This document shows positions 1 to 5,874 of a stretch of 11,910 nt of DNA, in pieces. Made by a program: the position numbers and the translations under genes. Location of the stretch: assembly GCA_015486785.1 (NCBI GenBank), contig WFQZ01000251.1:1-11910 (forward strand), read 5' to 3'. The DNA comes from Thermoflexales bacterium. GTDB lineage: Bacteria > Chloroflexota > Anaerolineae > B4-G1 > SLSP01. The notes under the pieces were generated by a model. It saw nothing but the letters and a program-made list of their open reading frames with translations, ran no database searches and had not been told where the DNA came from. How positions within the stretch are numbered: the stretch's first letter is position 1; each line of letters opens with the position of its first letter.

Positions 1-1031
1 CCAACGTGCAGATGCAGACGATCAACTCGGCCTTCCGCCCCACGCTGGATGTGTTCAGCTCGCTGGGCATCGCCCTGGTGCTGGGGTTCGGCGGGATGAT
101 GGCCCTGCGAGATAGCATCACCATCGGCGTCATCGTGGCCTTCCTCAACTACGTGCGGCGGTTCTTCCAGCCGGTGCGGGCGATCAGCAACCAATACTCG
201 GTGGTGCAAACGGCCATCGCCGCTGCGGAGCGCATCTTCGCCATTATGGACGAGTCGCCGCAGATCACCGACGCGCCCGACGCGCTCGAACTGGCGCAAG
301 TTGAGGGGCACGTGATGTTTGAGCATGTCTCGTTCCGCTACACGCCCGATACGCCGGTGCTGCAAGATGTGTCCTTTGAGGCGCGTCCGGGGCAGATGAT
401 CGCCATCGTCGGGCCGACCGGGGCCGGCAAGACCACCATGGTCAACCTGCTGATGCGCTTCTACGACGTGGACGAGGGACGGATTCTGCTCGACGGCCAT
501 GATCTGCGGCAGGTGACTCAAGAGAGCTTGCGACGGCAGATCGGCATGGTGCTGCAAGATAACTACCTGTTTTCCGGCACGGTGATGGACAACATCCGCT
601 ATGGGCGGCTGGACGCCACCGATGAAGAAGTCATCTCCGCCGCGCGGACGGCGGGCGCGGATACATTCATCCGCGCGTTGGCGCAGGGATACCAAACTCC
701 GCTCCGCGAGCGCGGCTCTAACTTGAGCTTGGGGCAGCGGCAGCTCATCGCCATCGCCCGCGCCATTCTCTCCGACCCGCGCATCCTGATCCTGGACGAG
801 GCCACTTCCAGCGTGGATACCCGCACCGAACGGGCGATCCAAGCCGCGCTGGAAAAGCTGCTCCACGGGCGGACGAGCATCGTCATCGCGCACCGGCTGA
901 GCACCATCCGCAGTGCGGGCCAGGTGTTGGTGCTTTCCCAAGGGCGCATCGTGGAGCGCGGCACGCACGCCGAATTACTGGCCGCGCAAGGGTTCTACTA
1001 TCAACTCTACACCAGCCAGTTTGGAGATTGA
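1..1031 (+). CDS. ABC transporter ATP-binding/permease protein, exporter type (MsbA/multidrug-like), 5'-truncated by window edge
   Basis: The translation begins in the last TM/coupling segment of a type-I exporter TMD. It then shows NBD motifs: Walker [11 protein letters not shown]-loop, ABC signature LSLGQRQ, Walker [10 protein letters not shown]-loop IAHRLSTI. The frame is open to the window edge and the stop TGA is at 1029-1031. Confidence 0.9.
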
Positions 1032-3715: not shown

Positions 3716-4093
3716 ATGAAATCCGTGGTTGCCACTTCACAAGCTCCGGCGGCAGTAGGGCCGTATTCGCAGGCGATTATGACCGCCGGTTTGATATTCA
3801 CCGCCGGGCAGTTGGGGATTAATCCACTGACCGGGAAATTGGCGGAGGGCGTGGAGGCGCAAACGCATCAAGCGATGCGCAATCTGCAAGCGGTGTTGGA
3901 ATCTGTCGGCAGCAGCCTGGATCGCGTGCTCAAGACGACCATTTTCGTGACCGATCTGGGCGACTTCCGGCGGATCAACGCGATCTACGGGAGCTACTTC
4001 AAAGATGCGCCACCGGCGCGGTCCACCGTGCAAGTGGCCGCATTGCCCTTGGGCGGGCTGGTGGAAATCGAAATGATCGCCGAGGTGGACTAG
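3716..4093 (+). CDS. ridA: RidA family protein (YjgF/TdcF; reactive enamine/imine deaminase)
   Basis: 125 aa with the characteristic N-terminus SQAPAAVGPYSQAI and a C-terminal Arg-containing motif (PPARSTVQV). RBS GGGGGAG precedes ATG 3716. Stop TAG is at 4091-4093. Confidence 0.88.
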   Translation: MKSVVATSQAPAAVGPYSQAIMTAGLIFTAGQLGINPLTGKLAEGVEAQTHQAMRNLQAVLESVGSSLDRVLKTTIFVTDLGDFRRINAIYGSYFKDAPPARSTVQVAALPLGGLVEIEMIAEVD

Positions 4094-4102
4094 GCGCGAC
4101 AC

Positions 4103-4138
4103 AAAAAAAGAGGCCGGATGTGCATCCGGCCTCTTTTT
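4103..4138. terminator. Symmetric bidirectional rho-independent terminator shared by ridA (+) and the tRNA operon (-)
   Basis: AAAAAAA-GAGGCCGGATG-tg-CATCCGGCCTC-TTTTT. A perfect 11-bp GC-rich inverted repeat (4110-4120 / 4123-4133) is flanked by an A7 tract on one side and a T5 tract on the other. It therefore reads as a stem plus U-tract on both strands. Confidence 0.85.
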
Positions 4139-4140
4139 GA

Positions 4141-4214
4141 TACCCCCGTCAGGATTTGAACCTGAAACCTTTTGGTCCGCAACCAAACGCTCTATCCAAT
4201 TGAGCCACGGGGGC
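4141..4214 (-). tRNA. tRNA-Arg, anticodon GCG (copy 1), no encoded CCA
   Basis: Minus-strand cloverleaf GCCCCCG-TG-GCTC/AATTGGATA/GAGC-G-TTTGG/TTGCGGA/CCAAA-AGGTT-TCAGG/TTCAAAT/CCTGA-CGGGGGT-A. The D-arm and architecture resemble bacterial tRNA-Arg(CCG/ACG). The anticodon loop TTGCGGA gives anticodon GCG. 74 nt. Confidence 0.75.
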
Positions 4215-4221
4215 TAAAAGG

Positions 4222-4295
4222 TACCCCCATCAGGATTTGAACCTGAAACCTTTTGGTCCGCAACCAAACGCTCTATCCAATTGAGCCATGGGGGC
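4222..4295 (-). tRNA. tRNA-Arg, anticodon GCG (copy 2, tandem duplicate)
   Basis: Identical to copy 1 except for a compensatory change at acceptor pair 7:66 (G-C in copy 1, A-U in copy 2). Same anticodon loop TTGCGGA. 74 nt. Confidence 0.75.
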
Positions 4296-4300
4296 AAAGG

Positions 4301-4390
4301 CGGGGAGGCAGGGATTCGAACCCTGGAGGGAGCTACTCACCCCCTAACCGCTTAGCAGGCGGCCCCAATCGTCCACTCTGGCACCTCCCC
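4301..4390 (-). tRNA. tRNA-Ser, anticodon GCT (type II, long variable arm)
   Basis: Minus-strand acceptor GGGGAGG/CCTCCCC. Anticodon stem GCCGC/GCGGT with loop CTGCTAA. 21-nt variable arm. T-arm CAGGG-TTCGAAT-CCCTG. Discriminator G. 90 nt. Confidence 0.82.
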
Positions 4391-4413
4391 AGAATCTATG
4401 CGCTTGTTAAAGG

Positions 4414-4500
4414 CGGAGGGAGTGGGATTCGAACCCACGGTGACCTCTCAGCCACAACGGTTTTCAAGACCGTCGCCTTCGTCCGCTCGGCCATCCCTCC
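4414..4500 (-). tRNA. tRNA-Ser, anticodon TGA (type II)
   Basis: Minus-strand acceptor GGAGGGA/TCCCTCC. Anticodon stem ACGGT/ACCGT with loop CTTGAAA. Long variable arm. T-arm GTGGG-TTCGAAT-CCCAC. Discriminator G. 87 nt. Confidence 0.82.
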
Positions 4501-4528
4501 TCAACGAAGGCCTTCCTCACGGGCGGGG

Positions 4529-4556
4529 AGTATACCACGCCGGAAGAGTTTGTCAA
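4529..4556 (-). promoter_or_regulatory. Near-consensus sigma-70 promoter driving the tRNA operon (minus strand)
   Basis: On the minus strand, TTGACA (plus 4551-4556) is followed by a 16-nt spacer and TATACT (plus 4529-4534). This lies ~25-30 nt upstream of the 5' end of tRNA-Ser(TGA) at 4500. Confidence 0.5.
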
Positions 4557-4620
4557 TGAACGTTACGCCCCGTTACGGGATTCCGCGAGCGGCGCGGGGC
4601 GGACGTCCGTTCACCAGAAC

Positions 4621-4655
4621 AAAAACTCCCCCTGATCGTGCTACCTCAGGGGGAG
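4621..4655 (-). terminator. Intrinsic terminator for the minus-strand PreA-like gene
   Basis: Perfect 10-bp stem CTCCCCCTGA / TCAGGGGGAG (4626-4635 / 4646-4655) with a 10-nt loop. On the minus strand it is followed by a T5 run (plus-strand AAAAA 4621-4625). It sits 19 nt after the stop at 4674-4676. Confidence 0.75.
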
Positions 4656-4673
4656 TTGACGCCACGGAGCAGG

Positions 4674-5753
4674 TTACTCTTCGGGCGGCAGGAGTGCGTT
4701 CACCGGGCAGCGGCTGATGCACAGGCCGCACTTTTCACAGTTTTCCTCGTGGATGCGAATCTTGCGGTTTTCGTCAAGGTACAACGCGCCGTAGACACAA
4801 CTGATCACACATTGGTTGCAGCCGGTACAGCGTTCCGGGACCAGGATCGGCGGTTTGGTCATCTGCGGCACGTCGTGTTTGAGGGCCAACCCCCGGATCT
4901 CTTCCACCGAGGCGTAGCCGTGTTGATCCAGCCAGCGGTCGAGCTGCCGGGCGATCTTCCCAAAGATGGAGTGCCCCTTGGTGATCGCGGCGGTACACAC
5001 GCCGACCGCCGTCGCGCCGGCCATCAGGAACTCCACCACGTCCGTGCCTTTGCTGATCCCGCCCACGCCGATGATGGGGATGTCCACCACTTGGGCGATG
5101 TCGTAGACCATCCGCAGGGCTATCGGCTTGAGGGCCGGGCCGGAAATCCAGCCGTAGCCTTTGCCGCCCATCCACAGTTTGCCGCCGTGTTCAATATCCA
5201 CGCCGAAGGCCGGGCCGTATGAGTTCACCGCTACGATGCCATCGGCGCCGGCTTCTTGCGCGGCGATGGCCGCCGGTTGCGGCTCGCGGAAGGGACTCAT
5301 CTTGACCAGCACCGGCACGCCGGCCACCTTGGCCGCGCGGATCGCGTCCTGCATTGGTTTGGGGTCGTCGGCGATGTAGTGGGTGCTTAACTCAATGGCA
5401 TCGGCAAACGGCTTGACTTTGGGGGCCATTTCCGCGATCTCTTCGGCGGTGTAGCCCATGCTGATGATCATCGGCAGTCCGGCTTGTTTGGCCTTGGCGT
5501 ATTCCACCTCCAACCACTGCTCCGGCGGCAGTTCCGTCCATAGTTCCGTGTTCAGGAAGTAGGTCTTAAAATCCGCCATGTTGGGCGTGGGCACATCCGC
5601 AGCCTTAACCGAGATGGTCTTGGTGACCAACGCCGCTGCGCCCCCCTTGGCACACGCCAACAGTGCCTCGCCATCCCGCACCGGCGGACCGGCAGCAGGC
5701 ATCACCGGATGGGCCAGAGTCAGCCCCAATAACTTTGTCGTCAAATCAGCCAT
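4674..5753 (-). CDS. Dihydroorotate dehydrogenase-family flavoprotein with C-terminal 2x[4Fe-4S] ferredoxin domain (PreA-like dihydropyrimidine dehydrogenase subunit)
   Basis: The TIM-barrel DHOD-like core (MGY...KMSP...GADGIVAVNS...GYGWISGPALKPIAL...IGVGGI) aligns with E. coli PreA segments. The C-terminus has two CxxCxxCxxxCP motifs (CTGCNQCVISC, CEKCGLCISRCP). The start is reassigned to ATG at 5753 (Met50 of the ORF-track translation, MADLTT), with GAAGGAGG 7 nt upstream. The in-frame extension to 5900 lacks an RBS. Confidence 0.8.
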   Translation of the reverse strand: MADLTTKLLGLTLAHPVMPAAGPPVRDGEALLACAKGGAAALVTKTISVKAADVPTPNMADFKTYFLNTELWTELPPEQWLEVEYAKAKQAGLPMIISMGYTAEEIAEMAPKVKPFADAIELSTHYIADDPKPMQDAIRAAKVAGVPVLVKMSPFREPQPAAIAAQEAGADGIVAVNSYGPAFGVDIEHGGKLWMGGKGYGWISGPALKPIALRMVYDIAQVVDIPIIGVGGISKGTDVVEFLMAGATAVGVCTAAITKGHSIFGKIARQLDRWLDQHGYASVEEIRGLALKHDVPQMTKPPILVPERCTGCNQCVISCVYGALYLDENRKIRIHEENCEKCGLCISRCPVNALLPPEE

Positions 5754-5780
5754 CGTAGTTCCTCCTTCAAAAGATATAGG

Positions 5781-5799
5781 CTCTTGTGAAACACAAGAG
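5781..5799. promoter_or_regulatory. Perfect 8-3-8 palindrome CTCTTGTG-AAA-CACAAGAG in the promoter region of the PreA-like gene; candidate operator
   Basis: Exact inverted repeat located ~28-46 bp upstream of the ATG at 5753, in the MVP-like/PreA-like intergenic region. On the minus strand it overlaps the spacer upstream of a TATATC -10-like hexamer (plus 5773-5778). Confidence 0.4.
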
Positions 5800-5874
5800 G
5801 AAATGGTGGGGTACGTGCTTATCGTAACCGGAAACTTGCCAGGTGTCAAGGAGTTGTCTGACATCCGCGCGACT

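Follow-up and report, generated by a model that had tools for sequence, protein, structure and literature searches.

The usual bacterial way of reading the CGN arginine box relies on a tRNA-Arg(ACG), a TadA substrate whose A34 becomes inosine (ICG), together with tRNA-Arg(CCG). The original prediction that prompted this analysis was right to take this arrangement as the norm for most bacteria. E. coli carries four ACG copies in an operon equivalent to the one described here: in serV-argVYZQ, the region most similar to our Ser(GCU)-Arg stretch, tRNA-Ser(GCU) is followed by four tandem tRNA-Arg(ACG) genes. The use of G34 for the CGY codons in bacteria without TadA is a previously described alternative (PMC6063277, PMC8629427, PMC8007984, PMC3711424). 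Among 1093 bacteria, Diwan and Agashe identified several major TadA losses, each accompanied by the disappearance of tRNA-Arg(ACG) and by GCG/UCG tRNAs, and in their reconstruction TadA is ancestral (PMC6063277). CPR bacteria use GCG, UCG and CCG (PMC8629427); according to a review, GCG takes the place of ACG in Thermotogae and Spirochaetes (PMC8007984); and in the Pneumoniae group of the Mollicutes a switch from ACG to GCG followed the loss of tadA (Yokobori et al., PMC3711424). Chloroflexota is not named as a GCG lineage in any of these four reports. A literature search on Chloroflexi with GCG or tRNA-Arg gave nothing specific either. Deeply branching bacteria without I34 are reportedly the subject of work by Rafels-Ybern et al. 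that appeared in MBE in 2019. Neither of the two anticodons at issue is mentioned by Wald and Margalit (2014).

Here we analyzed a stretch of 11,910 nucleotides, taken as a whole and referred to as the window, in which two neighbouring tRNA-Arg genes with a GCG anticodon had been noticed. In all likelihood both genes are functional and transcribed together, each encoding the standard arginine tRNA with which a Chloroflexota bacterium, most likely a member of the Anaerolineae, decodes CGY, and they occupy the 3' end of an operon that extends from a predicted promoter to a terminator. The trait belongs to the lineage and is of a type already described, the known alternative mode of CGN decoding: tRNA-Arg(GCG) in bacteria without inosine-34 is already documented, the genes are callable by any tRNA finder, and their sequences are present in many deposited MAGs. 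With the tRNA-Arg(GCG) of CPR, Thermotogae, Spirochaetes, Pneumoniae-group Mollicutes and Archaea, the window's tRNA shares the anticodon and the predicted decoding. It differs from the GCG lineages that lack inosine-34 in that its host belongs to the Chloroflexota, in that the absence of tadA and of an ACG gene is assumed for the window genome, and in that the gene is tandemly duplicated within a Ser-Ser-Arg-Arg operon.

The presence of two adjacent tRNA-Arg genes at 4141-4295, as originally proposed, was borne out by two methods. ARAGORN called both on the minus strand, the upstream copy at about 4222-4295 and the downstream copy at 4141-4214, and the Rfam tRNA model RF00005, whose gathering score is 29, matched them over its full length with 69.1 and 69.2 bits, respectively (E of about 1e-13 for each). 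In the Rfam cloverleaf alignment the anticodon loop of both copies, UUGCGGA, corresponds to U33-G34-C35-G36-G37. The anticodon was likewise read correctly at the outset, as ARAGORN and the Rfam fold both place G-C-G, and no other triplet, at positions 34-36. The A34 that characterizes the TadA-substrate tRNA-Arg(ACG) is therefore absent, and G34 in both copies offers TadA no base to deaminate. The first acceptor pair is a G1-U72 wobble in both genes, and neither of them encodes CCA.

The identity elements for ArgRS, as defined in E. coli and T. thermophilus, are A20, C35, G36 or U36, and A73 or G73. Reading of the sequences revealed A20 (within the D-loop GGAUAGAG), C35, G36 and A73 in both copies, and the GGAU or GGAC motif that contains A20 occurs in all 74 of the 74 distinct sequences of the family. 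Within this family the first acceptor pair varies, being G1-U72 in 47 sequences and G1-C72 in 27, and position 72 tracks the discriminator base: the combination U72-A73 was found 43 times, C72-G73 23 times and mixed combinations 8 times.

Alignment of the two copies showed that, as had been claimed, they are distinguished solely by a compensatory change, since the only two differing positions, G7/C66 in the downstream copy and A7/U66 in the upstream one, are mutual partners in the acceptor stem. In a tRNA of 74 nt, two random substitutions would hit partner positions and recreate a Watson-Crick pair with a probability of about 0.003. The original prediction regarded this change as confirming structural selection; the change does support such selection, but a single pair is not by itself a confirmation. 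An ENA metagenome contig (L001) and the NCBI MAG GCA_027007125.1 carry the same four-tRNA array, with these two Arg variants in the same order, which shows that the duplication did not arise from a single faulty assembly. Moreover, the downstream copy is identical in sequence to tRNA-Arg(GCG) genes of several Anaerolineae MAGs (L096, L118, L119 and L210). In the wider family, 99.9% of the cells of the cloverleaf are paired over the 74 distinct sequences, and 10 of the 21 pairs show changes on both sides; none of 500 shuffles reached the observed covariation score, and slid controls were 28-58% paired. Because the search pattern had set most of the anticodon stem, that stem is uninformative for this analysis. 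Both copies look functional, and the earlier statement that neither is a decaying pseudogene agrees with their equal Rfam scores, their intact identity positions and the strong stem covariation of the family.

The Arg pair constitutes the last two genes of an operon with the order Ser(UGA), Ser(GCU), Arg(GCG), Arg(GCG), all on the minus strand and separated by spacers of 23, 5 and 7 nt. The first gene, tRNA-Ser(UGA), lies at 4414-4500 (minus strand; ARAGORN; Rfam RF00005, 60.0 bits) and the second, tRNA-Ser(GCU), at 4301-4390 (minus strand; ARAGORN; Rfam, 50.3 bits), 5 nt upstream of the first tRNA-Arg; all four tRNAs are full-length matches to the Rfam tRNA model. About 28 nt upstream of tRNA-Ser(UGA), a sigma-70-like promoter was predicted at 4529-4556 on the minus strand, composed of TTGACA, a 16-nt spacer and TATACT with a TG extension. 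This is the sole site in the region 3900-4800, for which shuffles gave an expectation of 0.1, and it agrees with the consensus at 11 of the 12 hexamer positions, a match from which we infer its promoter function. Directly 3' of the last Arg gene, a hairpin of the intrinsic-terminator type, with no strand assigned, spans 4103-4138; it has a GC-rich stem of 15 bp, a loop of 4 nt and flanking runs of A and T. Its folding energy is -24.2 kcal/mol (z = -6.5), and none of 200 shuffles folded as well. A terminator pattern scan gave no match, and the hairpin was seen by folding instead; the scan probably missed it because the extension of the stem absorbs the T-run. A convergent ridA-like gene on the plus strand ends at 4093, and the location of the hairpin between this gene and the tRNA operon means that it can serve both directions, so that it probably terminates both transcription units.

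The comparison with E. coli extends beyond the anticodon. In both the window and the serV operon, tRNA-Ser(GCU) precedes tandem Arg tRNAs that read CGY. The window genes share with argV, argY, argZ and argQ the Arg-type D-loop (GGAUAGAG with A20), C35, G36 and A73, and the window tRNA-Arg is identical at 50 of 74 positions to the first tRNA-Arg(ACG) of the E. coli operon (901-977 of locus L211, which corresponds to NZ_CP101005.1 999458-1000185). In contrast to the E. coli tRNA-Arg(ACG), the window tRNA has G34 rather than A34, G37 rather than A37, U32 rather than C32 and a G1-U72 wobble rather than G1-C72, and its CCA is not encoded. The common gene order and the 50/74 identity suggest that, by position, the Chloroflexota GCG gene corresponds to the TadA substrate, and the shared Ser(GCU)-Arg order may be ancient. 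The spacers at the Ser-Arg junction also resemble each other (G-CC-TTT-G in the window, G-CCA-TTT-G in E. coli). We rejected this likeness as a sign of deep conservation and consider it probably due to chance, because the corresponding spacers of related Chloroflexota range from 3 to 26 nt and have unrelated sequences.

With the bacterial tRNA-Arg(CCG), the window tRNA shares the 3' half of the anticodon loop, C35-G36-G37-A38, which predicts an m1G37 made by TrmD, and its T-arm is presumably similar to that of the E. coli tRNA-Arg(CCG). Unlike the latter, it carries G and not C at position 34, and hence it would read CGC and CGU and not CGG. The sequence G36-G37 is the recognition motif of TrmD, a specificity from which G37 is probably modified to m1G37, and the 3' ends, given the absent CCA, would be completed by the CCA-adding enzyme. 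Aminoacylation and expression, like the m1G37 modification, are inferred features.

According to the established wobble rules, G34 would form a Watson-Crick pair with C and wobble with U, allowing a single tRNA species to read both CGC and CGU. The ten genes of the window contain 135 CGC, 26 CGT, 71 CGG, 16 CGA, 3 AGA and 3 AGG codons, CGC being the commonest arginine codon. Together, CGC and CGU account for 63% of the arginine codons of the window, most of which would be served by a Watson-Crick match, a share that fits the duplicated gene, and a second gene copy in tandem plausibly increases the amount of tRNA available for the most used arginine codon. An alignment of the window's PNPase with two solved homologues, given below, independently shows CGC in use for arginine. 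The reading of CGA and CGG would fall to UCG and/or CCG isoacceptors whose genes lie elsewhere in the genome. From the published co-distribution of tRNA-Arg(GCG) with TadA loss, the genome probably lacks both tRNA-Arg(ACG) and a TadA acting on it, and no deaminase gene was found within the window. Decoding of the CGN box would then be of the archaeal/CPR type (GCG, UCG and CCG) and not of the usual bacterial type (ICG and CCG).

In order to place this tRNA among its relatives, its D-arm and anticodon arm, with position 34 left free, were scanned against one genome per species in 185,579 species. At least 119 loci were matched and, among the 126 matches listed, position 34 was G in 124, C in 2 and A in 0; both C34 matches were outside the Chloroflexota. 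The pattern fixed G37, and ACG-type tRNAs normally carry A37, so that these counts show no more than that this tRNA body goes with G34, and the count of 0 for A34 says little about ACG genes elsewhere in the genomes. Of the 119 loci listed, about 109 carry Chloroflexota labels belonging to several classes (Chloroflexia, Anaerolineae, Thermomicrobiales, Caldilineaceae, Thermoflexales, Sphaerobacter, Nitrolancea, Thermalbibacter and Chlorohelix are among the labels); Dehalococcoidia and Ktedonobacteria are not among these 119. The other loci listed include four CPR/Patescibacteria MAGs (L102, L165, L180 and L193), one Abditibacteriota MAG and one thaumarchaeon, a Nitrosopelagicus archaeon (L201) with the same D-arm and anticodon arm. 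The tRNA is present in complete Chloroflexota chromosomes, for example OY970217.1 and OZ252150.1, and in complete or near-complete assemblies of Thermalbibacter longus (NZ_JAMSLR01), Nitrolancea hollandica (NZ_CAGS01) and Caldilinea aerophila. The original prediction had described a genomic G34 in this box as uncommon, which holds for bacteria overall but not for the Chloroflexota, where G34 is conserved. Of the two explanations that it offered, a different decoding strategy or a lineage-specific trait, the second is the correct one, as the comparison of related loci shows this tRNA body to be conserved, together with its G34, across the Chloroflexota.

Running ARAGORN on 0.83 Mb of the listed loci yielded 125 Arg(gcg), 3 Arg(ccg) and 1 Arg(tcg) genes, the last adjoining an Arg(gcg) gene in a Chloroflexi MAG (L127); no Arg(acg) gene was present among these 129 Arg tRNAs, in a sample that is centred on GCG genes and not random. 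The organization of the array was also recurrent in the listed loci: Ser(tga)-Ser(gct)-Arg(gcg) was found at least 22 times, Ser(tga)-Ser(gct) followed by two Arg(gcg) genes at least 9 times, and Arg(gcg)-Ser(cga)-Ser(gga) at least 27 times. The full array, Ser(tga)-Ser(gct)-Arg(gcg)-Ser(cga)-Ser(gga), was observed in at least three loci, and its left or right half in most of the other loci listed. The full array and its halves thus connect the Arg(GCG) gene with each of the four serine isoacceptors, and the Chloroflexota seem to share an ancestral cluster of serine and arginine tRNAs. At least 10 MAG loci, with the labels Anaerolineae, Thermoflexales or Thermoflexus, have tandem Arg pairs, and in these loci the copies are identical or differ by a compensatory 6:67 change. 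No close relative of the window was found among the loci listed; the closest of them, in an Anaerolineae MAG (L109), has a tRNA array with 87% nucleotide identity to that of the window and, in the same neighbourhood, SufS and NifU with about 70% amino-acid identity to the window's proteins. Linkage to the neighbouring genes thus recurs in related MAGs, with SufS/NifU-like genes in L109 and RidA-like genes in L100, L119, L173 and L210.

A loose pattern for bacterial-type tRNA-Arg(GCG) also matched 88 viral contigs of IMG/VR (L004-L091), in all of which ARAGORN called an Arg(gcg) gene. Many of these genes lie in phage tRNA arrays, with up to 41 tRNAs per locus, and the loci have a median GC content of 0.40; four Arg(acg) calls were obtained among the 88. 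According to a review, the tRNA genes missing from bacteria are missing from phages as well (PMC8007984), a statement with which the 88 viral contigs sit oddly.

Besides the tRNAs, the genes of the window are of a housekeeping nature, and the GC content is even throughout (0.56-0.64). They encode the ATPase and permease of an ABC transporter, a SufS-like cysteine desulfurase, a NifU-like scaffold protein, a RidA-like protein, a protein of the dihydroorotate dehydrogenase family with 4Fe-4S domains, a protein with SPFH (Band 7) and vault-shoulder domains, an HD-domain phosphohydrolase (HD plus HD_assoc) and PNPase, the latter matching solved structures with E = 9e-219. An ORF of 88 aa at 8730-8996 (plus strand) precedes pnp, the ORF pair spanning 8730-11393 (plus strand); this ORF probably encodes the ribosomal protein S15 (rpsO), as the equivalent 88-aa gene of L001 carries the Pfam domain Ribosomal_S15. 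The ABC ATPase gene at 6-1031 (plus strand) is the 3' part of a gene that in L001 encodes 601 aa, and it runs off the left edge of the window. For the dihydroorotate dehydrogenase/4Fe-4S gene at 4674-5900 (minus strand), the mechanical ORF has 408 aa and the gene called on the identical contig L001 has 359 aa; the true start is probably internal, given this shorter call. The 470-aa protein encoded at 5875-7287 (minus strand) combines the SPFH/Band 7 domain with the Major Vault Protein shoulder domain and shows a weak match to the Vault_3 repeat. Its gene is also present in L001, and a vault-shoulder-like protein is unusual for a bacterium.

Several other explanations for the Arg pair were considered. 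The GCG tRNAs could be auxiliary, the genome also having a tRNA-Arg(ACG) and TadA, with G34 adding capacity for CGC and CGU and inosine decoding being kept. There is some room for such coexistence, as the review, whose sample included Chloroflexi, listed GCG as the replacement of ACG in no phyla other than Thermotogae and Spirochaetes (PMC8007984), and the four IMG/VR loci with both gcg and acg Arg tRNAs show that the two can reside on one replicon. Nevertheless, we consider it unlikely, since among the 1093 bacteria GCG and UCG were absent from most TadA-bearing species and tended strongly to occur where TadA had been lost (PMC6063277), the 119 related loci listed contain no acg gene, and this tRNA fills the slot after Ser(GCU) that ACG genes hold in E. 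coli. A much smaller probability is assigned to the idea that one copy is a decaying duplicate and that a single copy is used. Tandem duplicates are often transient, and the identity of both copies in the relatives L096, L173 and L210 suggests a recent duplication or gene conversion. Against decay, the sole difference between the window's copies is compensatory and leaves the pairing of the acceptor stem undisturbed, the Rfam scores are practically the same (69.2 vs 69.1 bits) with all identity positions intact in both genes, and both copies lie between the predicted promoter and the terminator; in addition, two-copy arrays recur in at least 10 related MAG loci, with compensatory 6:67 differences.

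The occurrence of tRNA-Arg(GCG) on the 88 viral contigs, many times within large tRNA arrays, would be in line with tRNAs imported by a phage or another mobile element and standing outside the host's own set. This origin is scarcely credible for the window, where the flanking genes are housekeeping genes with nothing phage-like among them and the GC content is even, and where the array and its linkage to neighbouring genes recur in related MAGs, the array itself being conserved across the phylum. Finally, all known bacterial reassignments of sense codons involve arginine codons (PMC8629427), and a tRNA charged with an amino acid other than arginine, with CGC and CGU reassigned, was also weighed. 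We found nothing in favor of it and regard its probability as close to negligible: A20, C35, G36 and A73 are all present, and the CGC codons of PNPase fall on arginine at 19 of 32 and 18 of 32 positions in two solved homologues (56-59%), vs a background of 6.6%. Two functional copies of the lineage's own CGY-decoding arginine tRNA remain, by far, our preferred reading.

As a discovery this finding carries little weight, and its use is that of a marker for taxonomy and annotation. By its Ser-Ser-Arg(GCG) array the window can be assigned to the Chloroflexota, and the array predicts a CGN tRNA set of the archaeal/CPR type, which is relevant to codon optimisation. The array is also relevant to the expected absence of TadA-dependent mRNA editing and to the debate on whether I34 is ancestral in Bacteria. 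In this regard we put forward, as a tentative and rather doubtful proposal, that all Chloroflexota decode CGC and CGU by G34 without TadA or inosine-34, that the Arg(GCG) gene, in its conserved slot behind Ser(GCU), and the proteobacterial gene for the TadA substrate are direct orthologs, and that G34 is ancestral, with A34 and TadA arising later. If true, G34, which is common to Archaea and CPR, would be the ancestral bacterial state, the opposite of the reconstruction in which TadA is ancestral (PMC6063277).
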